DNA of 61,071 nt, counting the filler, from Diploschistes diacapsis (taxonomy: Eukaryota), in NCBI GenBank assembly GCA_023645945.1. It is 8 parts of 8 records of this genome, joined end to end, with 100 filler letters (N's around TTAATTAATTAA, not from the genome) between each part and the next. Parts side by side here need not be neighbours in the genome. Positions count along the whole stretch, not along the records: positions 1 to 7,586 come from JALAIB010001270.1; 7 more parts are not named here. The stretch is one strand, 5' to 3'. Below, one piece after another: positions 1 through 45,459 of the stretch; position 1 is the first letter of the stretch; each line of letters opens with the position of its first letter. Below the pieces are notes generated by a model, which did not search any database, was not told the origin of the DNA, and worked only from the letters and a program-made list of their open reading frames with translations. Position numbers and translations under genes: made by a program.

Positions 1-251
1 GCTTGGGGGATAGACTAGGATAGAGTATGCTGAGAGATGGGGATTTGAGAGGGGACGCTGGAAGGGGCTTTGGGGGAAAGTTTGGAGCCGCATATGCTTT
101 TTCCCCCTATTTTCGAATTCGAACAGAAATTCGAGAGCTTCGTGGACGAATTCTCCTATCTGGGAAGACATAAGGAAAGCGAGCTCATTCGCGTGCAAGG
201 TGGCTCAAATACAGACGATGAAACCGCTGGAGCAATCGAGACCATCCTTAC

Positions 252-367
252 CTCGTCAGCGAAGCCTTCTGCAGGTCCTTGACCTTGCCCATGGCCTCCT
301 TGAGCGGTAGTTTGGCATCCTGCGTCAAGAAGCGGAGCAAGTCCTGGAGTTCCGCCTTGGTCGTCAT
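252..367 (-). CDS. First exon of a conserved fungal hypothetical protein; gene runs off the contig start
   Basis: ATG at 367 reads MTTKAELQDLLRFLTQDAKLPLKEAMGKVKDLQKASLT, followed by a GTAAGG donor at 251; downstream exons are not identifiable in the contig. Confidence 0.55.
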
Positions 368-767
368 GGCGTTTATCTTGAATCGTTTATTCCACTTTCT
401 GCATGGAGCCTTTCACTTCTGGCCCGTTGGCTTGCATCGGTCACCTTCTATGTAGTTTTTTACCGAAATGATTCGACAGCGTTGAAGGGCGGTCGCTCTC
501 CAAAACCAAAGTGCTCGTTCTTGCAGCTGCACTACGCTCTTATAGAGCCGTGAAAGCCTGGACGGGGGAGAGCCCTTCTTCCCCACAGACGCGCAAGACT
601 AGACTGGGTATCTATCCTGGCTATCAAGTCAAGGTTTGAGCTCCTGGGGGCTTTAAGGCTGGATGAAGATGGATTTCTCCGCAGATGCGATTTCGGATTC
701 ACATATAGATGATCCAGGCAATTTTCTTCTCATTTTTCTACATACACCGCCAAATCTGTAAGGTAAG

Positions 768-1290
768 ATGGTTTCTCCCTTTTCGTACCTTCCTGTCTCT
801 CTAGCCGTGGCCAGGGTGCCGTACGCCTTGTCACCTAGAGCACCTTTTGCCCCCCGGAGTTCAGGGTCCCCTCAGCCGTCTTGCATGCCAGGTCGGCTTT
901 AATGGCACATACGGCACGATTCAGTCCGCCGTCGCTAGGCTACCAAACACCCATGGAACCAGCATCTATATTGATCCTGTCCGGCAACTACACGGAGCAA
1001 GTCAATGCAAATCGCTCTGGGCCAGTCTGCCTGCTCGGCCAGACCAGCAACGCCGTCAACGTCATCTGGGCCGCAGTGGCAGGCACGGGCGACAATGCCT
1101 ATACCCCAACCTCGACCGTTGCGCCCAATCTCAACGCCGATACAAACACGACATTTACAAGCAAGTATGGAGCATACATTACCGACAGCTATATCCACAA
1201 GGCGAACAGCCGCCTCAGCATGGAAGGCAAGTGTGCTCTGGGCAGGCCAATATGAGCATCTGCTGTGCTTACCTCGATGGAGCATTTTGG
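768..1290 (+). pseudogene. Pectin methylesterase (CE8) pseudogene
   Basis: CE8-like blocks lie in different frames: YGTIQSAVARLPN; ILILSGNYTEQVN..RSGPVCLLGQT; VNVIWAAVAGTGDNAYT..TVAPNLNA joined directly to TNTTFTSKYGAYITDSYIHKANSRLSMEGKCALGRP. At least 2 frameshifts, a stop at 1253-1255, and the central catalytic region is missing. Confidence 0.75.
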
Positions 1291-2144
1291 AAACACATAG
1301 GGGAAGAAATATTAGGTGTACTATCTATCGTCACATGACTTCTGGTCTTCGCTCCTTTTCTTGTTCTTGGGATTGTAATTGTTGCCGCCAGCCAGCAACC
1401 ATAAGAAAAACACCCCTTGTCTCACAGAGTTACACACTCAGCATAACTCGTTATCTGTTCGTACTCGGTCCAACCCAGTGGTCTCGCACACACCAAATCC
1501 AAAATAAAAAATGTTGCTGTCATAGATGCACATTTAATTTCTGAACGTGCTAGCTAGGTTTTAAGTGGGGCCGGGGGAGCTCTGTTGCTCTTGGCTGTCT
1601 TGTCTATCTATCTTTCGAGCCTTTGACTGTTCGAGTTACGTTACGGAGGAGGGGAGCAGCTTGGAACAATATTAGTACGAATAACTCACTCGGTATGCCA
1701 TCCATTTTGGCTTAGTGGCCACTAATTAGTCTTAGCGTCAGTCAGATACAGCCAATTAGCTCCTTACAAATTGCTGCTAAAAGTCTCATTCTAATCTAGC
1801 CTCCTTCCTGGTGACAGCGCTAATCCTCGTGGGGGAAATTATCGTGGGTGAAGTGAAGATACAGACTACAAGAGCATAAAGCTGCCCGGGCAACCCTTCT
1901 GCCGCTGGTCTAAACTAACTAACTAACTCCTGCACAAAAAAACTACAACTTCAAATTCTTGGCCCTTCTTTCTCTTCTACTCCTATCTACACATTTTGAG
2001 CTCTACACATCTCAATCAAACAAACATCATAATTCTCTAGTCGGCTTCGTCCAGCTTCCTCGTCACTTGCAAGCCTCAATCGTAGTCTTTGACACTTCTT
2101 TTTTTCCCCGCATCTCTCTCCGTTTCATTCCCTTCACTTCCATT

Positions 2145-2854
2145 ATGCTTTCTTCCACCATCCTCTACAGCACATTGCTCGCGGCTGTAGCCCTTGCTCA
2201 AACACCTAATGCCTCCTTCAACCAGACCGTTGTTCAGCAGATCATTGGCGAAATTACCGCCACCGAGCGCAGTAAGTCCGCCAACTGGCTGAACAACGCC
2301 AAATTTGTTAATCCAACGCTTCTTTAGGCAGCTGGTGTACCGCTCAATTCTCTTCATGCGGCAGTCTCTGCGGCGGTAACCCAAGCAGCAACCAATGCGA
2401 CTCGGTATGTTCTCCCATTTTGGCTCCGTCCGAAAAACCCGAATTTACTAACACATCTCAGACATCCCTGAACTACACCTGCACCTGCGCCTCCAACAAC
2501 AGTGCTCCGGCCTTGCAATACTACCAGCCCACTATGCTCAGCTTCATCTGCAACCGGTATCTTGGCGACTGCCTGAAGAATACTGCCATGTCCCAGAGCG
2601 AGCAGGCCAACTGCAAGGCAACCATTGTCTGCGGTAACTCTAGTGCCAATTCCGTTGCCAGTGCCGCTCCCTCTTCGGCGACGCCCTCTGCCACCGCTTC
2701 TTCCACCGCTTCCGGCTCGGCAAGCAAGACCAGCGCCGCAAGCCCCAGCGCCACTCAATCCAAGTCCGCTGGTGATTCGGTCAAGATAAGCCAGGAGATG
2801 ACCACCGGTATCTTCGGGGCCGCGCTGTTTGCCGTCCTTGGCATGGCCCTATAG
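2145..2854 (+). CDS. Small secreted Cys-rich, Ser/Thr/Ala-rich, probably GPI-anchored cell-surface protein (3 exons)
   Basis: Signal peptide MLSSTILYSTLLAAVALA; introns ~2272-2328 (GTAAGT..TAG) and ~2405-2461 (GTATGT..CAG); Cys-rich domain WCTAQFSSCGSLCGG..YTCTC..ICNRYLGDC..NCKATIVCG; S/T/A stalk; hydrophobic C-terminus GIFGAALFAVLGMAL. Confidence 0.8.
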
Positions 2855-3933
2855 GCCAATTGACTGAGAGAATGTACGAGGGACAAGAGGTGGAGCTCGA
2901 AAAGCATATCGTCACAAAGGTTTCCGAGATAGCGCATGACGCACAACGTCGGGCTATGACAGCGAGAGCGTTGGTGGTTCTTACTTGTTTACGTTTAGGC
3001 ATTACTTGCGCACATGAGGTTCCACGATTCTGATATCCTTCTCCTTCCCTTCTCTGTATGCACTAGGCGATACTTATGAGCTTGCTTGAGCAGGAGAGGT
3101 CTTAATGATTCGGAGACAGGCGAGAGAGATAAGGTCGAACTAATAGGCAAGAGGGGAAGAGAGGGGGACTTTTTACCCGCAGTTTACAGCAACCGGTCCA
3201 AGTCCGCGAGAGCTTTTGCACGGCTTCGAAGCGCTTGTAATTCAATCTAATTTTGAAAATCTATAATGTTGCCTTTTCGTACATGGCTCATGCTGCTGAA
3301 TCAATTCCTTATCTATATGTGCATGTTACCTGTACTCCCTACTTCCCGTCGCGCTTCAACCTCCCATTATCCTGCTGGCCCCCCCACCTCCCTCCATTTT
3401 ACCAGCTGCACCATGCACAGTGTACAGGACCTTGCTTCGCGCAGCAACAAACCTTCCTCCCCTGCCCAGTCCTTCAGGAAGGACTTCCTCGTCAACTAGC
3501 TAGCCTTCACCCTCCCCCTCTCCCTCTCCCCTTTTGGAAGCACAGAAGCAAGTGGAACAGGCAGCGAGGACGACGAGACGAAGACGTAGAAAGAGGATAG
3601 ATATATCTAATCTGCAATATCGCGAGGCGGGCCCGGCGTTGCTCCCTGGCACCCTTGTCTCTCTGTATAGACACACATCATACTGAACAACTGTGCTGTA
3701 TAAAACGTGAAAGAAGCCATCATACATAGTGTTTGTTACAAACAACACAAAACATGAAAAAAGCCCGCGTGGATGCCCCACCCCCGTGGGTATGTATATG
3801 CCCCATGCCATGCAATGTTTTTTTCCCTGCCGCCGTTTCGAACCATTTCGTTCCGTAATACAACACAATAAAAAAAAAAAAAAAACCATAACATGGCATA
3901 CCATCAATCGAATCAATCAATCAGATCATCCGA

Positions 3934-5331
3934 TCAAAACTCAAACTCCTCCTCGGCGTCACGCACATACAACTCCTCCTCGAACTCTGCCTCCGCATCC
4001 CTCTTGGCCGGCGGCATCGTCTGCTGCAGATTCGCCGCCATCTGGTCAAGCTGCTGCGTCGTCTGCAGGGGCCTGCCCGCGTTCGGGTTCGGGCCCGTGC
4101 TCTCCTGCTGCTGGCCCCCGCTTCCATCTGCGTCGCCACCGCCGACCTGGCCCGCCTGGCTCGGCAGGTTCCCGGCGGAGCTTCCGCCCTTCTTGTTCCT
4201 GCCGTGCTTGCTGCCCGCGGCCCCGGGGCCGCTGTGCTCGGCGCTGTGCTCGGCTTGGCGCTCCGCCTTACCGGCTCCTTTCTTGGCGCCGGTGGAGAAG
4301 AGGCTCTTGACGGAGGAAAGGCCGAGCGGGTCGGCTTCGGCGAGGCGCGCGTAGAGGGTGGAAAGTATGTCGTCGCCGCTGGAGAAGACTTCTGGGTCGG
4401 CTTCGGCCTCTGCATCCGCTTCTGCTTCGGCTTCGGCTTCGGCTTCGGCCAGTGCCTCTGCTTCAGCTTCCGCCTCAGCTTCCGCCTCAGCTTCCGCCTC
4501 CGCCTCTGCCTCGGCGTCAGCCTCGGCGGCACGGGCATAGATCATATCGAGCAGCTCCTCGTCGTCCATGTAGGCAAATGGCATAGCGTCCCGCCTGAAG
4601 AGCTGCTCGAGCTGGCTGGCAGTGTTTGCAATGTCCCCAATCGTGTTCGCGGCATTGGAGATTTGGCTTCCCTTGATCTTGCCGGCCGCCTTGGCGCCTT
4701 TCTTGACCGCTGAGCCTACCCTGGAAGACGTGGACTTGCCGCCGCTGCTGCCGCTACTGCTGCCCCTACCACTACCACTGCTTCCGCTACCGCTCTTGCC
4801 CTTGGCCTCGCGCACGTACAGGCCGTAGAAGTCGTCGTCGTCGTAGAACGCACCTTGGGCCTCGGCCGAGCGCCTGGCGTTCTGCTGGATTTGCTGAAGG
4901 TTCTGCACGGTTTCCAGACCCTGGTTAATGTGGTCGAGACTGGGAAGGTATTTGCCGGCCTTGCTACCAGCGTTGGTGACGGCCCCAATCCGTGCTTTCA
5001 TGGGCTGGCGGACGTATAGACTAGAGAAATCGTCTTCGTCGTCAAAAGCATAAGCAGAGCGCTTCATGTTTTGCTGGATCTGTTGGAGGTTCTGCACTGT
5101 CTCCAGACCTTGGTTAATGTTGTCGAGACTGGGAAGGTGTTTGCCGGCCTTTCTACCAGCGTTGGTGACGGTCCCTATTCGCGTTTTCATGGGCTGGCGG
5201 GCATAGAGGAATTCAGTGTCGTGGTCGGCTTCACGGGCAGCAAGGTCGTTGTAGTAGGAGTCCTGGTAGGCGGAGGCGACAGTGGCAACGGCGCCGAGGG
5301 TGGCCGCGGCCGAGACAGCGTTCATATGCAT
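3934..5331 (-). CDS. Secreted Kex2-processed repeat protein (KEP-like multi-peptide precursor), 465 aa, intronless
   Basis: Signal peptide (aa ~1-21); repeated [LI]Y[AV]R and KR/RR sites, each followed by X-Ala/X-Pro dipeptides; two near-identical 42-aa cores; acidic spacers; long (EA)n tract. Confidence 0.85.
   Translation of the reverse strand: MHMNAVSAAATLGAVATVASAYQDSYYNDLAAREADHDTEFLYARQPMKTRIGTVTNAGRKAGKHLPSLDNINQGLETVQNLQQIQQNMKRSAYAFDDEDDFSSLYVRQPMKARIGAVTNAGSKAGKYLPSLDHINQGLETVQNLQQIQQNARRSAEAQGAFYDDDDFYGLYVREAKGKSGSGSSGSGRGSSSGSSGGKSTSSRVGSAVKKGAKAAGKIKGSQISNAANTIGDIANTASQLEQLFRRDAMPFAYMDDEELLDMIYARAAEADAEAEAEAEAEAEAEAEAEAEALAEAEAEAEAEADAEAEADPEVFSSGDDILSTLYARLAEADPLGLSSVKSLFSTGAKKGAGKAERQAEHSAEHSGPGAAGSKHGRNKKGGSSAGNLPSQAGQVGGGDADGSGGQQQESTGPNPNAGRPLQTTQQLDQMAANLQQTMPPAKRDAEAEFEEELYVRDAEEEFEF
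4393..4530 (-). repeat. Coding hexanucleotide repeat encoding an (E/D-A)n tract
   Basis: Degenerate 6-bp repeat (gcttcg/gcctca on + strand) encoding aa 268-313 of the KEP precursor. Confidence 0.9.
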
Positions 5332-7586
5332 GTTGGTTGCTGTAAGTAGGATGCGGAATGATGAAAGGATGTTTAAAAAAAGACGGAGTCCAGCGCGATG
5401 ATAGGAAAAAAGTCAAGAGAAAAGACGAGTATAAGTAAGCAAAGTCCTGAGAGATAGCGAAAAGAAATACAAGTACTGAAGATGTCTGGAGAATAGCAAT
5501 GCGACTTGGGAGGAGCACGCAGATGTATATAACCTACCACAATAGGAGGCCTCACAGGCTCGGATTCCAGCTCAGGATGTGCCATGCTGGCCTACTGAAA
5601 CTGCAACACCATGCACTACTGCTGTGGCCCCCATTCCTCCGGTCGCCTTACTCCATACCGAGCGTGTGGTGACAGGCTCTTGGCCAACATGCTACAGTTA
5701 CGAATGTAGAAATCATATTCCGGGTATTAGGTGTGATCTGCGTCAGTTCCTGAAGCTTCAGCACACGGCTGACTGCGATTCATGACGCCGCGAAGGCTGT
5801 GCTCCCTTTACCCCTGTTGGTTGTAACCACCAGCTATTGCACCAACCAGAAGGTCTTTCCCGTGATAAGGATAGCCAGTTGTGCTTTGGCTCAGCTGAGT
5901 TGAGTGATGTCTATAATTCGACATAACAGGGCTGTGAAGTCTTGCGTGTATGTGTCCGTGTCTTTGCGAAAGAGTTGAAGTAAGCACTAACGTCTGTTCA
6001 AGGGCAGACTTTGTAGATGGGCATGTTTGCGCAATCAGGTATGGGTTTTTAGTACTGTAAACCTAACAACAGCACGATCGCAGGCTCAGTTCCTGCAGCC
6101 ATTGTTGCTTTGAGCGACTTGACAAAAAAAGCATGGAAAACTTCTGGTGCTGCACCCAGCAAATTCGCAGACATTGCAGTCAGTCAAGGAACCCTGCTAT
6201 GGGGGCGTGGGAGCGTCGGGCAGCAGCGTTGGGCAGGATCAATCGAAAAATTATTTTGGCATGTCCCAGAATCATGTAGATAACACGTTGGAGAATATGA
6301 AGGGATCCTCTAAACACAGACACTGCTTGTTCTGCGAGAAAGGTGTTGTAGACTTGTGTAAGGCTCAGTCAGGGCTAATCCGGCCGGCACCCTTGGGCCT
6401 TCAATAATAATCCAATCCACCTCTCTCTATCTCTCGGCTTTTCTTAAACACCCAACATCGTCCGCCGCTTCCTTCACCAGCCAGACCATTCCTACACGAA
6501 GTTCCTCTGTACTGCCTACAATGTCGGATCAACTGCGGCCCACTGTTTGAGAGCACTTGAGAATGTGACTGTGCTTGTTGGCTTGGCCGATCCGGCTTCA
6601 GTTTGTTCCTTCTCGTTCATCCCTTGCAAATTTGCATGGGCTCTGTGTAACCTCCAGCCAAGGACTGAGCGTAGCACAACCGTGCCACGGCAACAAGAGA
6701 TTATTGAATTGTGCAAACAGCCGAAGGGTGGGAAGGAGGCTTTTATTCGGTACTTTGGAGTTTGGCCAAGCCTTCAAGGGCCATTGGGATTGTAACATCG
6801 CGCTGGCAGTGTCGAGGTTGCAGTTTAAATGATCCCCAGAAATGGATGCAATGGAAGAAGCCGCCAATAAGTTGCTACGCTCCAACAGAAGAAAGATTAT
6901 TCATAAACGTCAACCTTCCTTGTGGATGCATCCATAAAGCCACATAAAAGACCATGGGGGATTACATAGCTTTCGATCGCAATCAGGCTGGTTTCCATTG
7001 TCCACGTTGAGAACCATTCTGCAGTCTGACTTTCCTGAATATCTTCCACTTGACAGGCTCTTCATGAAGTTTGAAAGGCGTCGTAGGCACGACAAGAAGT
7101 TGCGATCCGTGAGTCTAGCATTTCTTAATTATATAGGCTGGTACGGGATTCAACGTTCTTGCTCTGGCCATGCTTTTTGCCCCGAGATGGAGGTTTTCGC
7201 AAGCCACGACGAGAAGAAACCATATTTCGTTAGATCCAAAAACCTACTATAAGTGATATATGCCACACCAAGGGGAGTCGAATAATAAGAGTCAGATCCC
7301 GAAATGCATGTGTCCGTGGGGCATCGGTATGGTCGAGCTTGGAGGAGAATGCTATGTTAATAATAGGGTTAGTTGCACGAATGGTAGAATGGCAAAATAG
7401 TGAAGTATGCATATACAGTACTATGCCAAAAGTAATGGACCCTCTCCCAAATTACACCAAAATGCGTCTATTTCATAGAGCTATTATACCACCCATAAGC
7501 CTTTTAAAAATCTAAAAAAATATTCAAGCTTTCTATAATAAGATGAATATTTATTCTACTGTTTTTTTTGGAAAATATTAAAGCTA

Positions 7587-8399: not shown

Positions 8400-10382
8400 T
8401 CACTCCTTCTCGCTCTCCGAGTCACTGTCGGCCTCGCTCGGCCTCGGCGAGGTATCAATAACGCTGGAGGGCGTCGAGTCGGTCACCCGTCTCACATACC
8501 GCACCCCATCCGTGACAAAAACCTCCTCCTCCTCCTCCTCGTATGGCGGCGGCGGAGTCTTGTTGCTGCTCGCGCTACCTGACCATCTTCGCTGGTGGCG
8601 GCTTGTCCTTTCATTTCTACCGTAACGCCCTTCTTCGGCCCTCACCATCCCATCGACGAGTCTATGGGCTTGTCGAAGCTCCGAGATACCCTCCCATAGG
8701 CCAGAGGTGTGGGTCAGGATGGTTCCACTCTCCGTGGAAACCTGCTTCTCGTGCCACACCGCCCAATCGATACCGTTACGGTGGTTAGGCGAAGGTACTG
8801 CCTCCGCGCTGGTAAGCTTTTCTTGTTCCTCTTTCACGCGGAAAGTTGTGAAGCCTCTGACGCGGTTCCACATTGACTCCCATCTGTATCGACAGGCGGC
8901 CCTGCGGAACAGACGCTTGTTGCGACGCTCTTCACATTGGGCAGCGAGTTCGGCGCGCAGACGAGGGTTGCGCCGCACAATGACGAACATAGCACAGATC
9001 AACGTAGCAAGTATTATAATCAGAGCTGTGATCTGGAAGGCCTTCACGGCCTGCTGGGTGGTCACGTGACGAAAATCCGAGGTCGAAGCGGAGACTGCCA
9101 GATCCGGCAGCTCAGGGCCCAAAGAAGCGGTCGGAATCGTTGCTCGAGCAGTATTGGAAGGCGTAGAAGAGAGAATCTTGGGGCTGTCCTGCTCTTTTAT
9201 ACTTTGCGGGGCTTCATCCTCGTAGCAGTGGCGTAAGCTGTGGAGGCTAGCTGCCAGCAACTGAGCTGCACCCTGTGCCTTACTGCCTAACGAAGACAAA
9301 GTGTGCTGGAGGGCTGAGATGGTATCAGACGCGGTGAGGGGGTGTTGCCAGCTTTGCTGCGCTTGCGTTTCGATCAAGGGCACGAAAGGAGCCGGTCGAG
9401 CTGTCGGTCCGGACTGCTGTGGCACTGAAGGTGTTGATGTAACATGTACTGCGGCGGGTGGTGAGGGAAGTCTAGTCACGTGGACCACGGGACTTGTAGC
9501 CCAAGTGTACTCCGGAGTGGACTCCGGAGTGGACGCCGAAGTAGTCAATGATGGAGAAACAGAAGAGAAGCTCGAAATGAGAGTGGAAGTGGGCACGGCA
9601 CCCCTTTGTAGGTCCAGAAGCGGGGTTCTCCAATGCGAAGAGCTTCCAACGAAGAATTCCATGGGCGATTCCGGAAAGTCGCTGATCCTGACTGACCCTG
9701 CCCTGCCGCTCCGCCCATAAGACAAGGTGAAGCCAGCAGGAAAACCCTGCAAATCAAGTATCTCCAGAACGAAGATCGATTCGATTCTATCCATGCACTC
9801 GTCTTCCGTCCTGGCGGAACGACAAGCGCAGAAACTATACCATCGAACATGCTTCAGAATGGAACTTTCGTCGTCCGGGCTTGACAATGACCCTTCGGAG
9901 GCCGGATAGAGTTCCAATGATTTGCTCGGCTCAAGATGCTGGCCATTGACGGTCAACCCAGCGGGCTCTTTGGGGTTACAGGATCCAGCATTCGAGGGAA
10001 TCGCAATCGAGATAATCTGGTGCTGTGAGATGGTTGATCAAAGCGTTGCATAGTTAATGTACCTCATTGGCAAGACGCTGCTTCTCCTTGTCTGGACAGT
10101 CTCGACACGTGAGCTGGAGTTTGAGGACATTGTCGGCAAGATCTAACACGTGTATCAATCAGCAAGAGGAGCAACGCGGAGTAGTGAGAAATGCATACTG
10201 TAGTCGACAACCTTGGGAACCCTATCATTTGGTAGATTGTCGGGTTCCCGTCGTGATACCTTCGACTCCAATGCTGTATTTTCGACTACGTTCCTGGGTA
10301 AAGCTAAACAACGAGCGAGCTGTGGGCATAAAAGACAGACAAGCAACAGCAATAGAGCTGCTGCCTTTGGACACAATCCCAT
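8400..10382 (-). CDS. Type I single-pass membrane protein, fungal hypothetical (3 exons)
   Basis: Signal-peptide exon MGLCPKAAALLLLLVCLLCPQLARC from 10382; introns ~10143-10198 and ~10017-10062 join it to the 518-aa ORF; S/T/P-rich ectodomain; TM segment ALIIILATLICAMFVIV followed by basic RRNPRLRAELAA; PPPPY motif in the tail. Confidence 0.7.
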
Positions 10383-24949: not shown

Positions 24950-26770
24950 TCGTCACAGATTTATCTCGCTCTTTCGGATGCATGAAATGGTCTTCATACA
25001 TCGTGAAGCCCTGCCTATCCTTTCTCGACCAAGTCTCTTCCCCGGGGACAGTTTCTATATCAAAATTCTCTAATAACTGCGGGAGTCAGTAAGATCAGCG
25101 GAACAGCAAGGCATAGGGAATACTTACATACAAAACTAAATTGCTGTCCGAGACACTTACGTGAGCCCTGCCCAAAAGTGAAGTTCAGCCGCCGCATTTT
25201 CCTCGTTCCCTCGCCTTTGCCTAGCCATCTCTCAGGTCGCCATGCACTGGCATCATGCCCATATAGCCCTTCGTTAAAGTTGATGGCGGGTGCAGCGGCT
25301 CCGATGTCTGTTCCTGGTATAAATTGGTCGTTGATCTTCAATCCTCCTTTAGCTACCCGTCTTAGGAGCAGGAAAGGTATGGGCGGATACAGTCGCCCTG
25401 CTTCTTGTACGCAGGCCATGAAATGGGGAAGCCATCGACATCAGCAGTTCGGCATCTATAGCATCGCTTGAAATCCTATTGCTCGAACTTCGGAGGCGGT
25501 CGATCCTGTGAAATAACTCAATTGTATAATCCTACAGAACCCGACATAAAAGTTACAAGAATTCACAATGGGTAGGGGTCAAAACAACTTCACAGTGGTG
25601 TACGAGCACTTGACGTTGTAGGTAAGGGTTTTGGTATGTATCTTGCTTCGGTGCTGTGCGGACTTACTTTGAGTACAGACTGGGTCCAGTCTTCCAATGG
25701 AACTTCGCATTAGGAAATCACGATACTGCATTATAAATCAGTAATGATTCGAGGTACGTCCGCATCTTTTGAGAGCCAAAACTAAGTTTACCGCCATGAC
25801 ATTTCCAATTCCTGTCTGATCTGTACTCCTAGGAAATAGTAATCGTTTGATCCCCGGGATGCTCTTCAAGGGGTTGAAGATATAGGGATACATCGCCATA
25901 AGCCCAGTCAGCACCGCAGAACTCCGTACTGCATCAATGAGGCCAAGATCGTCTCGTTCGCGGCTCGTCATGTCCAAGCGTTGGCCGAACATGAGGTCCA
26001 CGCACATGTCATATAGATAATGTCTAAGTCCTTAGCTGGTGAAGAGAGTTGGCAAAACGTCCGATATTTACCTTACGCATTCGGAGAAATTGCTCTTGCA
26101 TCCTGTTTTCTCCTTCTGAGTTAAGACGTTCACAAATTTCTCGATGCCTTCATCTATCTTGTGTTCGAGCTCCGATAGACTTTTAACGGACATCTATTTC
26201 ATCCCGTCAGCAGGACTGCTTGAGCACCGTGGCAAAGACAAATCTCTTACGACAGGTGCGATAGCCATCCGCCTCCGGGAGTGCTCTCTATGATCCAGAG
26301 TCTGGAGTAAGGGTGGCGTCTCACCCAAAGCTCCATGACTCCAGAAATCACTCTTGGCTACCTGACGATGGTAGACTTGAGAAATTGCGTCCGAGACATC
26401 AAAGGCCAGCATATTTGGAGCGACGCGGACAATGAGGCCTTGTGCAAACGTCAGTGATCTCAAGCTCTAGCGGTCTATGTTCTTACGAAGCCTTACCATA
26501 CTGCTCATGGAGTTTCCTGGCCAGACCCGACACATCGCTCGAGCTTAGCACGGAGAGTTTATAAAGGTCTGTGATGCTGCTCCAGAATGGCCCGGGGAAA
26601 CGACTTAGAGGATGGAGATAGCGGTTGTAGACTCCAAGTATAAGGAAACCAAAAAGACATATCATCAACGTCAAGGCTCCCGAGGCTGGTAACGTCGCCA
26701 GCTCCCAGAGCCAATCTATTGACAATTGCATTGAGCTGATCCGGCTCGTAGCAGAAGTAAGAAGGCGCAT
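24950..26770 (-). pseudogene. Cytochrome P450, probable pseudogene
   Basis: N-terminal TM plus YNRYLHPLSRFPGP, IVRVAPN, K-helix ACVQEAGRLYPP, WRPERW and heme motif FTFGQGSRKCLG. No I-helix AGxDT(T) motif is recoverable between ~25420 and 25790 and the frame is broken there. Confidence 0.7.
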
Positions 26771-28155: not shown

Positions 28156-29890
28156 ATGGAGCATACGAAGCCCACAAGCAGCAATGGCAGTTCGAGTCTC
28201 GACAGTGAGAAGCAAGTCTTTGAGAACAAAAAGGAGATAGCTGCACCAGATGCAAAAGGACCGCAAGGTAGAGAGGTTAATCAACAGCAGCTTGGTCCAG
28301 AATGGGAGCCACGCAAGCAAGAAAAGCTCATCATCGGCGTCCTAATGCTGGTTTCCTTGATCGCTGCGCTTGATACTACAGTCTTGACGCCGGCATTACC
28401 GGTAGGTTACTCCCGTAAAATTGTAATCAGTACCAATAGATTCAGACCATTGCATTCACCCTCAACGGCAGCATAAACGACATGTTCTGGGCAGGTACCT
28501 CTTATCTTCTAACCTTCACGTCGCTGCAGCTCTGTCTAGCAGCTGCACCGGATATCTTCGGCAGACGACCACTGCTCTTCATCTCTGTTCTACCATTCAC
28601 AGTCGGAAGCATCGTCTCTGGTACTGCCCAAGGATTCATTGCTTTACTAGCAGGACGCGCTGTCCAAGGCATTGGCGGAGGCGGAATCACTGCTTTAACA
28701 TACGTGATCTTTACCGATGTCATTCCCTTGCGGCAGCGGCCCGCCTATATCGGTCTTATACAGCTCGTGTGGGCGCTAGGAGGCATCATCGGTCCAGTGA
28801 TCGGAGGGCTCATCGCGCAACACACTACATGGCGATGAGTATTCTCCATGAACTTGCCAATCTGCGCAATCGCCTTGGCGACTATTCCCTTGGCCGTGAG
28901 GTTCGAAAAGTATGCAATCGACTGTCCTAAAGAAGGTATCTTCGGTAGATTGGGTTGGTTGCTTTCTGTCCGTGGGAAGCCTGACAAGCTTCCTACTCGG
29001 AGTGACCTGGGGAGGGATCCAGTTCCCATGGAGTAGCTACCAAACTAAACTCCCACTCGTCCTAGGTATAATCGGAATGGCACTCACCCTCCACTGGGAG
29101 CGCCGCGTCGTCAGCCTCCCTCTAATAAAGCTTAATCTTTTCGACCGACAAGGAAAAAATCATCTACCTATGTACTCTCCTACAAGGCTTAATCGTACGT
29201 TCTCCCTCGCCCCCCCCCTTGTCCTCTCCAACACCGACCCCTAATCCCCATCAACCCCGCACAGATGATCTGCCAACTTCTTCTATCTAATCCTCTGGCT
29301 CCAATCCGTCGGCGGCCAAACCCCGACCCTCTCGGGCGTGACCCAGCTCGCCCTGAGCATCAGCATGCTCCCCACCAGCGCCCTGACCGGTCTCGCCATG
29401 GCGAAGCGCGGCTCCTTCCTCTGGGCGCTGCGCACGGGCCGGCTCGTCCTGATCCTCGGCTCCGGGCTCATGATCCGCTTCTCCCGCCGCCTCCGGCATC
29501 GCGTACACCGTCGTTGTCTTCGTCGTCGTGGGCGTCGGCCACGGCATGCTGCTTTCGTCCCAGGGCTTCGCGGCCCCAGGCGGGGAAGGATGCCGGCGAC
29601 GTGGCGGTGGGCGGGGCGGTGGTGCAGAATCGCCTGGCGGGTGCGCTGCCGGCGCAAGATGCGGCACTGGCTATTCCTGGCTTGGGACACATGCCGGCTG
29701 CGGTGCGAGGGCAGCTGCTGCATGCGTACAGTGGCGCTTTTCAGACGCTTTTTTTATCGTTCTCACCGCGCTGGCTGCGGGTGGGGCCGTCCTGAACCTG
29801 GCGCTTGGGGCGCGGGAGACGGAGAGGGGCGTTGGGATCGAGGCACGTTTTGAAGAGGGATGGCTAGTTCTTCAAAGGGAAAGGAAGTAA
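28156..29890 (+). pseudogene. MFS drug:H+ antiporter (DHA2/14-TM type) pseudogene
   Basis: AALDTTVLTPALP, FWAGTSYLL, DIFGRRP, GRAVQGIGGGG, PLRQRP, GPVIGG. In-frame TGA at 28836-28838 replaces W in TTWR*VF, and several frameshifts follow (~28910, ~29155, ~29280, ~29485). Confidence 0.8.
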
Positions 29891-30074
29891 ATAGCATATC
29901 AACGGCACGCCAGCCAATCATTGAAACCGGTTCTTCATCCGACCAACTCTTACTAAATGTATCATGGACATGAATTTCTCAAACAAATCGCAACCCAAGG
30001 CTGGAATGATAACTTTCGCCTTTGCTTGTTCCATTGCCTTCATCTCCCCCCATCTACAAAAATCCCCCATGCTG

Positions 30075-30521
30075 CTACTGCTCTACTTCCGAAAACCCAA
30101 CCCGGACCCCGTTCCGACTCCTCTTCGAAAACCGATACTCCTCGACAAACTCCCGCGTCCCGTCCCTGCACTCGCACACGGCAAACGCCCTGGCAAAGCG
30201 CGCAACCACATAGGCATACTGCGTCACGACCATCTGCTGCGCCGGACAGTTGCGCGCCCCGCCGCCGGAATTGATGGAACTCCCACTTCGGCCGCAGCAG
30301 CAGCAGCGGAGGCCGGGCCGGGGCCGGGGCCTGGCCGGTTTCCAGCCAGCGCTCGGGCCGGAAGGCGCCGGCGTCGGGCCCGAAGTAGCTCGCGTCCTGG
30401 TGCAGCAGGTTGGTGCGGAAGTCGATCAGGGTGCCGCGCGGGACGAAAGACGGGGAATTGCCGTCTGCGTCGCGCGTGCAGAAGCGGATGAGCCGGTCTA
30501 GGGGAGCGAGGAGGCGGAGGC
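30075..30521 (-). pseudogene. Last exon of a CYP52-like cytochrome P450 with a frameshift; 5' part lies beyond the contig end
   Basis: After a CTGAC..CAG acceptor it reads LRLLAPLDRLIRFCTRDADGNSPSFVPRGT..YFGPDAGAFRPERW..RPKWEFHQF; a +1 shift is then needed for GGGARNCPAQQ (heme Cys) ..FVEEYRFSKRSRNGVRVGF; stop at 30075-30077. Confidence 0.7.
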
Positions 30522-30605
30522 CTGTTTTCGCGGGAGGGAAGAGGGGGACGGGGTCAGCGGTGGTCTTGTGGGCTTTTTTGTCCGCCTTGCTTCGTCCTTT
30601 TGGGA

Positions 30606-30705
30606 NNNNNNNNNNNNNNNNNNNNNNNNNNNNNNNNNNNNNNNNNNNNTTAATTAATTAANNNNNNNNNNNNNNNNNNNNNNNNNNNNNNNNNNNNNNN
30701 NNNNN
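30606..30705. other. Artificial contig linker
   Basis: N44-TTAATTAATTAA-N44. Confidence 0.98.
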
Positions 30706-38773: not shown

Positions 38774-41700
38774 TTAGACGTTGTATCTTCCAGAGGCGCT
38801 TGCACCGTAACCCATTTCGCCGGCATCGTGCATGGGATGCTGAACGTTTACGTCTGGGTTATCGGGAAGGTTTCCGGAGTGGTGGCCGTGCGGAATCCCA
38901 TCTGTGCCAGATCCGTCATGGACTCCCTTGGACGTGTCCATTGGCAGACCCGTCGTCGGGTCCGTGGTAGTGTGGGCAGCTGGGTGATCGCCAGGTGGAT
39001 CCTTTGACATGTCAGTAACCGATAGGAATAGCTAGTTATTAGATTGATCATACCTTGTGCAGTCGGTTCCGGTCGGAATGGCCTGTACCGACATCAATGT
39101 TTTTGTCGTCCTTGTGGCTGGAAAAGATGCCACCAAGGAGACCGTGCTTCTTGTGCTCGCCCTCATGCTCGGGATGTCTCTGCGACTCGGCATAACGCTG
39201 ATCTCTGTCTTCTGGAGCAACGCCAACAGCACCGGGTGCTCCGCCTTCCTTGCCGTGGAACCCGCCCAGAACAGCATGGTGCTTATCGTGTCCGTGTTTA
39301 GCACCAGCACCTGCAGCGCCGGCTCCCGCTGCAGCCTCCTCTTTGTGATGGTGGTGATGGTGTGTCTGGTGGGGCTCATTGGCCAGCGTGGTTTGTTGAG
39401 CGGGTTGACCTGCCATCGTAGCCTGTGTCTGGGAAGGATCTTGAACAGTATGGCGATGCTTGTCGTATTCGTGCGTACCGATAGCGCCGGCTCCTAGAAC
39501 ACCAGCACCAGCAGCGGCATCCCTTCCGTAATGATGGGGTTTGTCCCGATTGTCATTGGCTTGCGAGGGTTGACCACCCAAGGTACCGGTTTGGGGTCCC
39601 GACGGGTCTTGCGATCCTTGGTGATGCTGGCCATACTCATGCTTGCCAAGAGCACCGGCTCCAAGGACGCCAGCACCAGCAGCGGCATCCCTGCCGTAAT
39701 AATGAGACCTGTCTCTATTGTCGGAGGCCTGAGTAGGTTGGCCGATAGCTGACTGAGTGGGCACGTTTCCATAAGGCTGAGAACCTTGGCCACTCGCGAA
39801 TTGGGATCCGGTAGTATCTTGTGGTCCTTGATGGCGTTGGTCATACTCGTGCTTTCCAAGTGCACCAGCTCCAACAGCGCCAGCGCCAATAGCAGCATCT
39901 CTGCCATGATGGCGAGAGGGATCTCTGCTATCGTGGGCTTGCGGAGATTGGCCAGTAATTCCCCTGGACGGTTGACCATAGCCAGTTTGGGTTTGGGTCA
40001 TGTCTTGAGGCGTTTGGTGATGTCTGTCATATTCGTGCTTGCCAAGTCCAGCAGCTCCAAGAGCGCCAGCTCCTGCCATGGCTTCTTCACCGCGGTGGTG
40101 ATGGCCGTGAGTAGCGGAGGGAGACTGAGTAGTAGCTGAAGTAATCGGAACGGCACCAGAGTCTCTGGCCGACTGACCATATGTGGTACCGGCGGCCTGA
40201 GGGTGTGTGTGCCCATATGTGGTGTCGGTAGCATTGGGATGTCTGTGTTCATCATATTCATGCTTTCCTAGAGCTGCAGCACCCACGGTACCAGCACCCG
40301 CCGCTGCCTCCTTGCCTCTGTGATGATCCTTGTGCTCACCAGACCCCTGGTCGTCAACGTCGTCATCCTTTCTGCCAGGATGAAGAATCCTGCTCAGAAG
40401 CCCGCCTTTCTTTTTCCCCTCTCCATCATCGTCTTTATTCCTGTCGTGCTCATGCTCCCCCACGACTACGCCGGCCGCACCAACACCTGCAGCGCCTACA
40501 GCCTCCTTCTCACGCCGCCTTCTCTCCTCTTCCTTGAAGTGCTTCTCTTGCTCAGCATGGGCGGCTTTAAGATCCTTCTCGTGCTGCTTTTCTTCTCTTT
40601 TTATTTCCTTGTCGTGTTGCTTCTCTTGTTTGTGTATCTCCTTCTCGTGCTCTTTCAGTGCCTTGTCGTGTTGCTTCTCTTCTTTGCGTATCTCCTTCTC
40701 ATGCTCTTTCAGTGTCTTGTCGTGTTCCTTCTCGGCTTGTCGCTGCTGCTCCTGGGCCCTATTCTTGTCTTCGTGCTTTTGGGCCTCATATGCCGCACCT
40801 CCGACACCGACTGCACTAGCTCCAAGGGCAGCATCGCGTCCGTAGTGATACTGTTCAGGATGACGCTCCTGCATAGTCTGCGTGGGGTGGCGTGTATCGG
40901 TTGAGGTGGTCTGTCCTGGCGCTGAAGTCTGGGCACTGGGGGGCTGTGCTTGGCTTGCCATGGTGCCAGCTTGGGGGTGAGCACTGGCCTCATGATGCTT
41001 CGCAGCTTCATAACCGCCTAGACCAACTGCGCCTGCGCCAGCTCCGAGAGCCGCGTCACGGCCATAATGGTGACCCCCCGGTTGTTGACTTCCTACCGCA
41101 GTCTCTTGAGGCTGCGTATAGTAGCCCCCACCTATCGTCGGTTGCTGCTGAGTGTTCCGATTCGCTGGTGCAGTAGACCTGGGTTCAATGACAGTAGAAG
41201 CTGACAACCCTTGAGTATTACTTGTTTGAGGCTGTGCTGCACCATCATGGTGCTTAGCAGCTTCATAACCTCCAATACCCACGGCGCCAGCGCCAGCTCC
41301 AAGGGCTGCGTCTCGACCGTGATGATGACCCGTGCTCGGATCGTTGGAGCTTCCGGTTGTCCCCTGAGGCTCTGGTCCAACCCATCGGTCAATGTGTACT
41401 CCCTCAGAATCACCAGCGTCCATGGCGCCGGGCGGAGCTTGTGTGTGTTCATTGGGATTGGCCTTGTTTGCGTGAGCGGCGTGAGCAGCAGCACCGACTC
41501 GGCCGGATTGTGAAGCGGTTTGCTGGGTCTGCTGGTGTTCTCTGTGCAACCTATCCCCTTCGTGCGCAGTGCCTGCGGCAGCAGTTCCTAGTGCAGCGTC
41601 TCTGCCGAGATGATGACTGGATTGAGTAGTTGGTTGCTGAGTCGACTGAGTTGGCTGCGTCTGCTGATGTTCCCTATGCAACCTATCCCCTTCGTACGCA

Positions 41701-42467
41701 GTGCCAGCGGCAGCAGTACCGAGTGCGGCATCTCTGCCGAGATGATGGCTAGATTGCCCGGTGGGTTGCTGAGTCTGCTGGTGTTCTCTGTGCAGTCTGT
41801 CTCCTTTGTAGGCAGTGCCTGTGGCAGCAGTGCCAAGTGCAGCGTCTCTGCCAATGTCATGATCTTGTTTTGCAGAGCTCGCTGTAGGGTCAATGCGAGG
41901 GTCAATTGACCGTGAGCTATAAGGGTTTCTTGCGCCAAGCGAACTGCCCGTACCGGCTGTGCCCTGGGATTGATCGAAAGTAGAGCCGAATTCGTTGTGG
42001 ATGGGAGCTTGGTTCGCTGCGCCACCAGTTGTACCTGCTGTTCTGTCCGGCATATTCTGCTGCGTCAGAGGAGCGTTTGCTCGTGAGGCGGCCAAGCCAG
42101 AGGTTGTGCCTCTTGGATCTTGCCTGATAGACGAGGCTGTCTGCTGATAATCGTGAGCTTGTGGCTTGGTTGCTACCTGGGCAGCTCTCAGTGCATCGCT
42201 TGGGCTTGTCTGGGTATTGGAGCCTAGCGATGTTGCGCCGGTGCCGGCGCTCGAGGTCCCCATGTTCGAAGAGCCAATGCCAGTGCGACCTGCGGGAGCA
42301 TTCGTAGCTCCAGTAGAGCCGCCTTCAACGGGGTCGGTGGTCCTGGAATGACCAAAGTGGCTTCCTTGGCCAGCTACGTTACTGAGGTTGCTGTTGTTGC
42401 CATCGCCGTAAAGAACATCATCATCGGCTTTTGAGCCGGGGCTGAAGACGGATTTGATCTTGTCCAT
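38774..42467 (-). CDS. Large His/Gly/Gln-rich intrinsically disordered repeat protein (hydrophilin-like), ~1210 aa
   Basis: 1139-aa ORF plus a final exon through intron ~39002-39053 (RNRLHK|DPPGDHPAA); many HHxGRDAA(L/A)GAGA..G repeats; charged KEHEKEI.K.EKQHDK repeats; no signal peptide. Confidence 0.85.
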
Positions 42468-43461
42468 CTCGAGTGCTAGAGGTTACCTGAGAGGAAGGAA
42501 GGTAGGTTCTGCCGTCAAGGAAACTCAACGCTTTATAAAGGGCGGGAAACCGAACGCGCAGATGCTACGTTGACTCAGGTGTTCGTACGAGTGTTAGAGG
42601 GCAAGCTACCAGAAACAGTGCTACCTATCCGGTTTTGATATAGAATCTAATAGGTAGCTTCCATAGACATCAGGTGCCACAAAGTTGAACTTCTCGCCTT
42701 CGTCATCGTATTCAAAATCCAGATTTTGGATTCCAGACTCAAGCTTAAAGGGGATTAAGCTCCAGTTAAAACACAAGCAATGAAGTCATTGAGATGAAGC
42801 CGCGTAGCCAAAAGAGGCATGGTGAGCTGGGCCAGCCCCGCCTCGGCACACAAACATGCCGGTTTCTTGGACAATCATTTTGCCTTGACGGGTTACTAGT
42901 GCATAGATCTGCATGGAAGCGCCCATTCCCAAACGCATAATTCTGTGGCTCCACTCGCTGCCTACGAAAGTGACCCCAGAATAAATAAAGGCTAGTACGG
43001 CGGTAGTCGACGCCACACAAGCAAGGGGTCTTTTATTGCTTGTGTGGCGCCACCTACCGTGGTGCTAGCCTTTATCCTGGGGGTTAGTTCATGATTCTAA
43101 AGCTAAGCCGTCGACCAAAATCACGCAAATTGGGCAAGCCGTATCAGCTGATGATGTGGCGGTGGTGGCTGTGCTATGATCAAGCTCAACGATTGGTTCG
43201 CTTCATATTAACGCTAGTTAGTTAACGGAATATATCTTATCTATTTGGCTTAGCGGTACTAAACTGGCGCTTTATATCACACCCTGCACAACGTATGCGG
43301 CTTCCATGCCATGGTTCGGAAAAGAAAAGGATCAACATATGATTTTGAAATTGTCTGGAAAGGGCATCATCGAAGTTTCCTATACCTACTTCTTCCGTAG
43401 AACTACAGATCAAATCTTCACATATGCTGATCCCGAGGCTTCCAGAGCCCCTCTACAAACC

Positions 43462-45132: not shown

Positions 45133-45459
45133 CTTCTGGAAAGTCTTGAGAACGTCGATTCAGGAAATGAAGGCAAAGATATAGCGTACGCGACAACGCG
45201 CGATTACGCTGAAGTACACAAAACCTGGGGGTTGAGGAATAACATGATGTGTCTGGCGATATATGATGTCGCCCTTTAAGTTCTTAAGCGAAGCAGTAAG
45301 TATAGAGTAAAAAATCTAGGCTTAAAAACTGGGTAGGTTTATTGAGGGTTGCATTTTTAAACCCCTGCTCCGTAATTACAGCTTAAAAAACTGAGTAAAT
45401 TATTGGGGTTTGCATTCCCAAACTTCTGCTATTTTTTATTTGTGGGGATTGTATCTTTA

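Follow-up and report, generated by a model that had tools for sequence, protein, structure and literature searches.

The locus studied here raises the question whether a long open reading frame of the lichen fungus Diploschistes diacapsis encodes a secreted precursor that is cut into several peptides, and which of its parts would be the products. The window analyzed is a stretch of 61,071 nt that consists of eight joined parts with N filler, and the reading frame lies within the part JALAIB010001270.1 (positions 1 to 7,586). A sequence-only reading had claimed a 465-aa polyprotein at 3934..5331 without giving its strand. A single intronless ATG-to-stop ORF of 465 codons was indeed obtained there on the minus strand (protein P0001), with the start context ...CAACATG and no in-frame ATG in the interval between the preceding stop and the start. 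The segments of P0001 are listed in Table 1.

Table 1. Segments of P0001 and their positions in the 61,071-nt window.
Segment	Position	Strand	Basis
Whole CDS, 465 codons + stop	3934..5331	-	ORF, codon usage
Putative signal peptide, residues 1-21, Ala/Val-rich h-region, A-S-A before presumed cut	5269..5331	-	sequence reading
Acidic-aromatic pro-segment, residues 22-45, LxxR at Arg33 and Arg45	5197..5268	-	sites, composition
Core unit 1, residues 46-91: X-Pro, 42-aa basic peptide 48-89, KR exit	5059..5196	-	aligns to P0003 units
Acidic-aromatic segment 1, residues 92-108: two X-Ala, 12-aa acidic peptide, LYVR end	5008..5058	-	sites, composition
Core unit 2, residues 109-154, RR exit; 39/46 identical to unit 1	4870..5007	-	alignment, dN/dS
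Acidic-aromatic segment 2, residues 155-174, LYVR end	4810..4869	-	sites, composition
Core unit 3, residues 175-247: Gly/Ser-rich basic N-part + 46-residue C-part, RR exit	4591..4809	-	composition, alignment
Acidic-aromatic segment 3, residues 248-267: three X-Ala/Pro, acidic peptide, IYAR end	4531..4590	-	sites, composition
Dipeptide tract, residues 268-313: 23 X-Ala/X-Pro in register with Arg267, charge ~-21	4393..4530	-	site count
Acidic-aromatic segment 4, residues 314-329, LYAR end	4345..4392	-	sites, composition
Core unit 4, residues 330-444: three X-Ala/Pro, 107-aa peptide 336-442, KR exit	4000..4344	-	sites, strains
Acidic-aromatic segment 5, residues 445-465: LYVR, one X-Ala, 6-aa acidic tail	3937..3999	-	sites, composition

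Judged by codon usage, substitution rates and frame-keeping indels, the ORF looks like a real gene. The annotated frame had the highest codon-usage log-likelihood (0.283 versus at most 0.141 in the other five frames), and its GC3 was 0.746. Comparison of core 1 with core 2 gave a dS of 0.47 and a dN of 0.08 (omega, dN/dS, 0.17), demonstrating that the cores are under purifying selection. The tract of X-Ala dipeptides is a DNA repeat with a period of 6 and 21.8 copies, of which only 75% of positions match, and its Ala and Glu residues make use of every synonymous codon (four and two, respectively); the tract is therefore maintained at the protein level. Among the indels listed for related strains (12 of 17), those within the ORF were +3, +12, -3 and a +2/-1/-1 set, all of the latter on one contig and with a sum of zero, whereas the six outside the ORF were all single-base changes; among those listed, the frame is thus preserved inside the ORF only. 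That the ORF is non-functional and merely held open by GC-rich periodic low-complexity DNA would fit with long overlapping ORFs on both strands (e.g. 273 aa on the plus strand), with Pfam, which returned no family for P0001 but only sub-threshold or low-complexity matches, and with the absence of the exact protein from a collection of 15 billion sequences. However, codon usage, omega and strain indels, together with a relative at the protein level that is encoded on an unrelated contig (P0003, see below), make this explanation very improbable.

Strain substitutions within the ORF amounted to 14 synonymous and 22 non-synonymous changes (36 of 44, those listed), so that P0001 as a whole is not tightly constrained. 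Constraint is weakest in the middle of core 4, which evolves rapidly and differs in length among strains. Separately, two low-depth contigs of run X4 contained joints that skip 252 and 93 bases, both in frame, the 252-base skip being out of step with the 189-base repeat period. The proposed fungal origin of the precursor was borne out by an RPB1 gene with CTD repeats, a chitin synthase gene and a Zn2Cys6 domain in the window. The DNA of the window is present in a lichen metagenome sequencing run and similar DNA (90-99%), the source of the strain indels above, was detected in three other runs. No RNA run carrying the gene was among the sequencing-run matches listed, and no paralogue of P0001 was found within the 61-kb window.

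The cleavage sites proposed by the sequence-only reading were all found at their residue numbers. They comprise seven monobasic [LI]xxR sites (Arg33, 45, 108, 174, 267, 329 and 457), six of which read [LI]Y[AV]R, and four dibasic [KR]R sites (KR91, RR154, RR247 and KR444). All four cores (48-89, 111-152, 177-245 and 336-442) are entered via [LI]Y[AV]R and left via KR or RR. In 20,000 shuffles [LI]Y[AV]R occurred on average 0.012 times and at most twice, compared to six times in P0001. Moreover, Ala or Pro occupies P2' at 11/11 defined sites but at only 2/10 other Arg residues (Fisher p = 2.2e-4), with a background Ala+Pro frequency of 0.167 when the long tract is excluded. The statement that all basic sites are followed by X-Ala or X-Pro hence holds for the eleven defined sites but not for basic residues in general, as 21 Arg and 23 Lys are present in P0001; four further dibasic pairs are located inside the cores (RK60-61, KK210-211, KK350-351 and KK380-381). 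After the sites, one to three dipeptides follow in all cases but one, Arg267, after which 23 consecutive dipeptides run in register. The longer runs (2, 2, 3 and 23) are placed before acidic-aromatic segments and not before cores, three of the four cores being preceded by a single dipeptide.

A single relative of P0001 was recovered from 1.84 billion cluster representatives (phmmer E = 6.5e-6; BLASTP E = 2e-10). This protein, P0003, has 187 aa and three units behind an N-terminus of the classical signal-peptide type, with a basic n-region and a hydrophobic h-region. In a whole-protein comparison it shares with P0001 the motif [LI]xAR/xP-MKx[KR]IG (slash, presumed cut) and the periodic spacing of hydrophobic residues in the helix, and the residues directly after X-Pro are conserved between the two. 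The processing pattern that had been called complete in P0001 recurs only in part: the LxAR/xP entry is kept in 3/3 units, but neither the dibasic exits nor the dipeptides behind these are present: the units end on a single Arg rather than a dibasic pair and are not followed by X-Ala. P0003 also retains an acidic segment, Asp-Phe...[LI]xAR, of about 7 residues, which has neither dipeptides nor a dibasic site before it.

Word-index searches over certain length ranges returned only a spurious Glu/Ala-repeat match (2% of the query) for whole P0001 and, for residues 22-250, none of 3075 candidates. A profile built from P0001 and P0003 retrieved P0003 alone, again in certain length ranges. Nothing was found in scans of metagenome contigs with this profile and with P0003 or in a scan of prokaryote genomes, and no match below E 0.06 was obtained among PDB sequences. 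Matches to Moricin (E 0.12) and to HET-s (E 0.005) fell below the cut-offs and were set aside. The Phage_Hfq match of P0003 (32.9 bits) was judged spurious, being a sum over three 27-residue repeat stretches. In the ESM Atlas the best hit of P0003 (0.78), a cluster of Ascomycota hypothetical proteins, scored under the level that shuffled sequences also reach and is a lead only. Six motif strings of P0001 gave no match in the available supplementary text of the KEP catalogues (PMC6339444; PMC7329392).

The processing grammar of P0001 is non-random, as seen from the shuffles and the Fisher test, and agrees with published motifs. Kex2 was reported to cut KR and RR as well as an extended LxxR motif, and cleavage at LxxR was shown in vitro for five effectors (PMC8528282; bioRxiv 10.1101/2020.05.27.120113), while X-Ala/X-Pro is the signature of Ste13 (PMC6339444). 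The top-ranked non-basic P2 residues for Kex2 are Arg, Thr, Pro and Glu, together with Ile (PMC8528282); the LxxR sites of P0001 carry Ala or Val at this position, outside the best-ranked set. Further, Asp at P3, as in P0003, was termed unfavourable for Kex2 (PMC8528282). In view of these residues a different monobasic-specific protease may act at the LxxR sites, or they may stay uncut. Genes for Kex2, Kex1 or Ste13 were not among the Pfam matches of the 236 ORFs of the window.

Charge and aromatic residues are distributed unequally over P0001. The putative signal peptide of 21 residues is Ala/Val-rich and ends with A-S-A, but has no basic n-region and is of modest hydrophobicity. Behind it, the cores comprise 280 of the 465 residues and harbor 37/44 Lys and Arg, the remaining seven being the Arg residues at P1 of LxxR, but only 16/73 Asp and Glu and only 3/26 Phe and Tyr. 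The protein contains no Cys, no Trp and no N-glycosylation sequon. The predicted cores of 42, 42, 69 and 107 residues have net charges of +3, +2, +8 and +3, the last one being basic and Gly/Ser/Gln-rich. The C-terminal 46 residues of unit 3 align with unit 1 end to end (z 2.6-3.0; 5-8 of 500 shuffles reach the score), and overall cores 3 and 4 are weakly similar to the other units (z 2.3-3.0). An AF2 model of P0001 displayed isolated helices without a globular fold (mean pLDDT 51, pTM 0.21), including a predicted helix at residues 221-253, and low pLDDT in the segments that precede the LxxR sites. With GRAVY values of -0.50 to -0.93, each of the four cores is hydrophilic, and the best helical hydrophobic moment, 0.57, was equalled by 40 of 200 shuffles. 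The negative GRAVY and a helical moment not above that of shuffles disfavour lytic action, and the earlier description of the cores as amphipathic or cytolytic is not supported; neither measure lends positive support to antimicrobial action.

The absence of a predicted fold and the very hydrophilic, Gly/Ser/Gln/Asn-rich composition would also fit a protein that is secreted uncut, or cut at the four dibasic sites only, and serves as a disordered charged matrix or wall protein, for example in water-holding or surface-coating in a desiccation-tolerant lichen fungus. In-frame length variation among strains and the excess of non-synonymous changes in core 4 (among those listed) point in the same direction. 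A variant would be assembly at the hyphal surface as known for Rep1 of Ustilago maydis, a secreted precursor from which Kex2 releases ten peptides of 34-53 aa and one of 229 aa; those in the range of 34-53 aa can play a structural part at the surface, and these repellents are described as amphipathic, amyloid-forming and wall-bound (PMC3133707). The cores of P0001, however, are hydrophilic and cationic and not measurably amphipathic. In addition, an uncut protein leaves unexplained why Ala or Pro stands at P2' of every defined site, why 23 dipeptides follow in exact register, and why the residues right after X-Pro are conserved in P0001 and P0003. We therefore regard the matrix explanation as unlikely.

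If the precursor is cut, the acidic segments, taken as spacers in the sequence-only reading, might be products in their own right; it is before them that the longer dipeptide runs stand. The Phe/Tyr-rich segments that end with [LI]Y[AV] could be bioactive, alone or with the cores, e.g. as pheromone-size signals, the cores being mainly carriers or counter-ions. Their [LI]Y[AV]R-ended motif is the most repeated element of P0001 (six copies versus two clear cores), their trimmed size of 6-15 aa is that of KEP peptides, and their runs of several dipeptides resemble those before the mature peptide of alpha-factor-type precursors (PMC6339444). An acidic segment is also retained in P0003. On the other hand, that segment is short and stands without preceding dipeptides or dibasic site, the segments of P0001 differ from each other in length and sequence, and the longer conserved element between P0001 and P0003 is the core, with an omega of 0.17 between cores 1 and 2. 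That the acidic segments are the bioactive products is thus considered quite unlikely.

Among known systems, P0001 most resembles KEPs with a Ste13 signature, whose prototype is the yeast alpha-factor precursor. Like P0001, these have a secretion signal (a putative one in P0001), repeats separated by KR or RR, X-Ala/X-Pro after the cut, no Cys and no tailoring gene nearby (PMC6339444; PMC7329392). In P0001 the repeats are represented by the near-identical units 1 and 2 (39/46) and the six acidic segments with [LI]Y[AV]R ends, each of the four KR/RR sites closes a core, and X-Ala or X-Pro follows all eleven sites as in alpha-factor-type precursors. In contrast, KEP cores have ~8-30 aa (PMC6339444; PMC7329392) compared to 42-107 aa in P0001, which moreover has only two near-identical units besides two weakly related ones and a 23-dipeptide tract. 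With LxxR at the entry and a dibasic site at the exit, the stretch between two cores, an acidic-aromatic segment, would be cut out. A strict KEP pipeline demands at least three tandem repeats of at least 8 aa between KR, KK, RK or RR and no separated sequence above 100 aa (PMC7329392); P0001 has two clear repeats only, and its stretch from RR247 to KK350 measures 102 aa by hand count. This pipeline probably skips P0001, which bears on detection and not on mechanism. Alpha-type sex pheromones are repeated peptides of ~9-15 aa, far below the core lengths of P0001, and the ascomycete pheromone motifs quoted in PMC6339444 contain Cys or Trp and are absent from P0001 because it has neither. The lengths of the Rep1 peptides indicate that KEP products need not be pheromone-sized, although Rep1, as far as PMC6339444 describes it, is without the Ste13 signature that P0001 has. 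The claim that P0001 is uncharacterised hence stands at the level of the family, but the kind to which it belongs has already been described.

Other precursors share single features with P0001. That of candidalysin, Ece1 of Candida albicans (named in PMC7329392), is likewise a polyprotein of non-identical peptides with Kex2 sites between them. Candidalysin is hydrophobic and lytic, whereas the cores of P0001 are hydrophilic (GRAVY -0.5 to -0.93) and lack a significant hydrophobic moment. In K2PP effectors an aliphatic residue occupies P4 and Arg P1, P3 and P2 vary, and a disordered acidic segment lies before the site (PMC8528282; bioRxiv 10.1101/2020.05.27.120113), as was found for 7/7 monobasic sites of P0001; these effectors consist, however, of one pro-domain and one folded effector, while P0001 is a fold-less polyprotein with seven copies of the motif. 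The precursors of ant hymenoptaecin and bee apidaecin, like the P0001 gene, have one intronless coding exon that encodes several long, cationic, Gly-rich peptides flanked by RR or KR and by E/D-A/P dipeptide spacers, and in the ant 97-aa antimicrobial units are flanked by EAEP and RR (PMC3415428). Maturation of the ant precursor was proposed to involve an endoprotease, a carboxypeptidase and a dipeptidyl aminopeptidase (PMC3415428), the same three steps that we propose for P0001. The insect precursors differ in being animal proteins with near-identical units, without excised acidic-aromatic segments or sequence relation to P0001, and activity was demonstrated for the ant peptide (PMC3415428), whereas the cores of P0001 are predicted from sequence.

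Dikaritin precursors also have a signal peptide, repeats and Kex2 sites (PMC7329392; PMC12048977). P0001 likewise shows a signal-peptide-like N-terminus along with repeats and Kex2 sites, and the Tyr conserved in its [LI]Y[AV]R motif would then be part of a RiPP core. However, DUF3328 was absent from the 236 stop-to-stop ORFs of at least 85 aa in the 61-kb window (exons below 85 aa could escape), which makes a RiPP of this type unlikely. Neither a tyrosinase nor a methyltransferase was seen in the ORFs of the window, and the closest P450 and MFS fragments lie ~20 kb or more from the gene in positions along the joined window. Furthermore, the conserved Tyr is P3 of the cleavage site and corresponds to an Asp in P0003. 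A dikaritin-like precursor is thus scarcely plausible, in line with the initial preference for linear peptides.

Taken together, P0001 is on balance judged to be a pre-pro-polyprotein of the KEP kind from a lichen fungus, with the cationic cores as probable main products, which would form an extracellular defence-type set and would not be membrane-lytic. The Ala-rich N-terminus would direct the protein into the ER and be removed after residue 21. In the late Golgi a Kex2-type convertase would cut after the Arg of the seven [LI]xxR and four KR/RR sites, a Kex1-type carboxypeptidase would take off the C-terminal basic residues, and a Ste13-type dipeptidyl aminopeptidase would trim X-Ala and X-Pro, one to three dipeptides at most sites and 23 at one. 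The main products would be four hydrophilic, cationic peptides of 42, 42, 69 and 107 residues without Cys, in each of which a basic N-part would be followed by a C-terminal helix that is rich in Gln/Asn and has hydrophobic residues at a spacing of 3-4 positions. Some eight acidic peptides, rich in Phe/Tyr and 6-15 residues long, would arise besides these, among them those predicted at residues 96-107, 159-173, 254-266, 314-328 and 449-456; the role of the acidic segments is most probably to neutralise the positive charge of the cores in transit and to supply the recognition context of LxxR. As a single transcript encodes all of them, the cores would be released in fixed stoichiometry, similar to insect multipeptide antimicrobial precursors, and would presumably act outside the cell, on the surface of either nearby microbes or the producing fungus.

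To our knowledge, little has been learned about unmodified linear ribosomal peptides in fungi apart from pheromones, candidalysin and repellents, and a case from a lichen fungus was not described among the literature matches listed. In our best reading, P0001 represents a new family within an established kind, the KEPs. Its two clear repeats and the 102-aa stretch between dibasic sites illustrate that repeat-based KEP pipelines can miss heterogeneous precursors. A bolder view, which we offer tentatively and consider doubtful, is that P0001 is the founding member of a narrow, unrecognised family (two members in 1.84 billion representatives) of linear, Cys-free, cationic host-defence or partner-directed peptides of fungi, which would be released in fixed ratio with acidic aromatic counter-peptides and shape the bacteria and algae of the lichen. 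Fungi would then have, in P0001, a counterpart to the multipeptide antimicrobial precursors of insects, its grammar of LxxR entry and dibasic exit being undescribed for KEPs. P0001 yields four exactly predictable peptides of 42-107 aa and acidic partners that are open to synthesis and assay, and LxAR/xP-MKx[KR]IG provides a motif for tracing relatives in lichen genomes. Should bacteria or the alga prove to be targets of the peptides, these would offer a molecular handle on partner control in the lichen.

The window DNA is fungal, as it encodes RPB1 with CTD heptads, chitin synthase, an ABC transporter, a Zn2Cys6 domain, ceramidase and P450 and MFS fragments. Only one sequencing run, labelled lichen metagenome, contained every sampled word of the stretch, and this run may be where the DNA came from; parts of the stretch were also present in three more runs, which belong to three other studies. 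The peptide gene lies on the minus strand as a single ORF, 465 codons running from ATG to stop; the sequence-only reading was silent on the strand. It has no upstream in-frame ATG and its start context is CAAC-ATG.

The ORF appears to be a real gene. With RPB1, the ABC transporter and chitin synthase as codon-usage reference, its frame gave the highest log-likelihood of all six (0.283 vs. at most 0.141), and its GC3 is 0.746. Cores 1 and 2 (residues 48-89 and 111-152 of the predicted protein P0001) share 39 of 46 residues, with dS 0.47, dN 0.08 and omega 0.17. DNA that is 90-99% similar was found in the runs X2-X4. The six indels listed within the ORF are +3, +12 and -3, plus +2, -1 and -1 on one contig, which sum to zero; the six listed outside it are single bases. 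Counting against a real gene, 14 of the listed substitutions are synonymous and 22 non-synonymous. The non-synonymous changes are concentrated in the middle of core 4 (residues 336-442), and those listed spare every P1 Arg, P2 basic residue, P4 Leu/Ile and P2' Ala/Pro; with divergence so small, this sparing is only consistent with constraint and is not significant evidence for it.

Core 4 contains a 12-base unit repeated 2.1 times (4230-4254), and one X2 contig carries an extra, slightly different copy at 4229; core 4 hence shows between-strain copy-number variation of a four-residue unit with the frame kept. Two contig joints lie in the ORF: low-depth contigs of X4, a rock metagenome, skip 4885-5138 (252 bases) and 4239-4333 (93 bases), both in frame. 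The longer skip would bring the basic beginning of core 1 directly in front of the final residues of core 2, and differs from the 189-base repeat period; it could reflect a genuine allele or an error of assembly. About 50 bases past the stop codon, at 3870-3885, the plus strand has 16 consecutive A (T in the gene's orientation); the X2 contigs leave 3828-3891 uncovered.

When every [LI]xxR and every [KR]R was taken as a site, 11 sites were obtained. Every site listed in the sequence-only reading was present at the residue given, and the claimed X-Ala or X-Pro follows each of them (P2' Ala or Pro in 11/11). The same held for 2/10 other Arg residues (Fisher p = 2.2e-4), the Ala plus Pro background outside the long tract being 0.167. 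The motif [LI]Y[AV]R occurs six times, whereas 20,000 shuffles averaged 0.012 occurrences and never exceeded 2. Arg267 is followed by 23 X-Ala/X-Pro dipeptides in unbroken register, in which the place of Ala/Pro is constant and the first place varies (Ala-Ala, Asp-Ala, Leu-Ala and a closing Asp-Pro are among the variants). The DNA of this tract repeats only poorly, with period 6 and 75% matches, and uses all four Ala and both Glu codons, indicating that the tract is kept as protein. The processing pattern is real and beyond chance. The four cores (core 3 being residues 177-245; 280 of 465 residues together) hold 37 of 44 Lys/Arg, 16 of 73 Asp/Glu and 3 of 26 Phe/Tyr; the remaining seven basic residues are the P1 Arg of LxxR sites. 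Four additional dibasic pairs within the cores (RK60, KK210, KK350, KK380) had gone unmentioned.

Kex2 cleaves after KR/RR and after an extended LxxR motif, in which P4 is aliphatic and P2 can vary and which was cut in vitro in SnTox3, ToxA, SIX1, SIX4 and SIX6 (PMC8528282; bioRxiv 10.1101/2020.05.27.120113), while Kex1 takes off basic residues and Ste13 X-Ala/X-Pro dipeptides (PMC6339444). Since the site grammar fits these specificities, P0001 is read as a pre-pro-polyprotein with a putative, atypical signal peptide that would mature in three steps: Kex2 would cut after the KR/RR and LxxR sites, Kex1 would strip the basic residues and Ste13 would trim the dipeptides. The non-random sites and this match support the processing design that had been proposed. 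P2 of the LxxR sites is Ala or Val in P0001, and P3 is Asp in its relative P0003; as both are described as less favourable for Kex2 in PMC8528282, another protease with monobasic specificity may do the cutting instead.

The exact P0001 sequence was absent from a 15-billion-sequence collection, and word-index searches over certain length ranges gave no genuine relative. A phmmer search with residues 1-250 against 1.84 billion cluster representatives returned one match, P0003 (E 6.5e-6; BLASTP E 2e-10), a 187-residue singleton from a 929-base JGI/IMG contig. It has a signal peptide of classical type and contains three units that are nearly identical. Invariant between both proteins are the entry [LI]xAR followed by x-Pro and Met-Lys-x-[KR]-Ile-Gly, several Leu, Asn, Thr and Gln positions in the C-terminal helix, and the Asp-Phe opening the acidic segment. 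The exit of P0003 is a single Arg after Thr; dibasic exits, dipeptides after the exits and long acidic segments are not conserved, and the complete pattern is therefore not conserved. Entry site and core thus form the old element of the design, and exits and long tract are specific to P0001. The C-terminal 46 residues of core 3 can be aligned over their whole length with core 1 (z 2.6-3.0; score reached by 5-8 of 500 shuffles), and for the end of core 4 the alignment is weak; plausibly, all four cores arose from one unit by divergence. No paralogue was found within the window, and no relatives in metagenome contig scans or a prokaryote genome scan.

AF2 without an alignment gave no fold (mean pLDDT 51, pTM 0.21) but separate helices, including the C-terminal core halves (69-93, 132-160, 221-253, 426-438) and the Glu/Ala tract. 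The predicted trimmed cationic products have 42, 42, 69 and 107 residues, net charges of +3, +2, +8 and +3, pI 9.5-10.8 and GRAVY of -0.50 to -0.93; eight acidic peptides of 6-15 residues (pI about 4.1) are also predicted. The highest helical hydrophobic moment over 18 residues was 0.57, a value that 40/200 shuffles also attained. As modelled, the core peptides are basic and partly helical, neither hydrophobic nor demonstrably amphipathic, so that a role like that of the lytic peptides candidalysin and melittin is not favoured and the proposed amphipathic, cytolytic character finds no backing.

The gene neighbourhood is summarized in the table. DUF7707 is the sole Pfam match within ~7 kb of the peptide gene. 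The P450 fragments and transporter may be part of a small secondary-metabolite locus; no link to the peptide gene was seen. A dikaritin-type RiPP precursor is unlikely, as had been argued, since DUF3328 was found in 0/236 stop-to-stop ORFs with a length of at least 85 aa across the window.

Peptide gene and further features of the window (no Pfam match: E <= 1e-4)
Feature	Position	Strand	Length	Remarks
Peptide gene	3934-5331	-	465 aa	
DUF7707 ORF	2312-2851	+		E 1e-17; convergent downstream neighbour
Upstream ORF without Pfam family	8403-10037	-	545 aa	Ser/Thr/Pro-rich; one hydrophobic membrane-span-like stretch; C-terminus acidic, Ser-rich
Long ORF without Pfam match	39051-42482	-	1144 aa	
Long ORF without Pfam match	57939-60527	+	863 aa	
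Long ORF without Pfam match	43465-45159	-	565 aa	
Cytochrome P450 fragments and MFS/TRI12-like transporter	25063-25440, 28440-29241, 30043-30657	-, +, -		~20-25 kb from peptide gene

Kex2-processed repeat proteins (KEPs), including ones with Ste13 signatures outside pheromones, are already described in PMC6339444 and PMC7329392, and none of six motif strings matched the accessible supplementary text of these surveys. Precedents for long products are Rep1 with peptides of 34-53 residues (PMC3133707) and animal multipeptide antimicrobial precursors with 97-residue units flanked by EAEP and RR (PMC3415428). P0001 differs from known KEPs in its long, heterogeneous cores, in the predicted entry/exit asymmetry excising acidic-aromatic segments, in the 23-dipeptide tract and in being almost without relatives. 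By hand count, P0001 has a 102-residue interval between dibasic sites and no more than two clear repeats, and so would fail the strict criteria of PMC7329392. Of the sequence-only reading, the processing design stands, as does the case against a RiPP, and the amphipathic, cytolytic character does not. Judged from its sequence, the gene appears to represent a new family of a kind already known, the KEPs, with a predicted maturation of textbook type, and P0001 is a clean candidate, open to direct testing, for a source of predicted linear secreted peptides of a lichen fungus.
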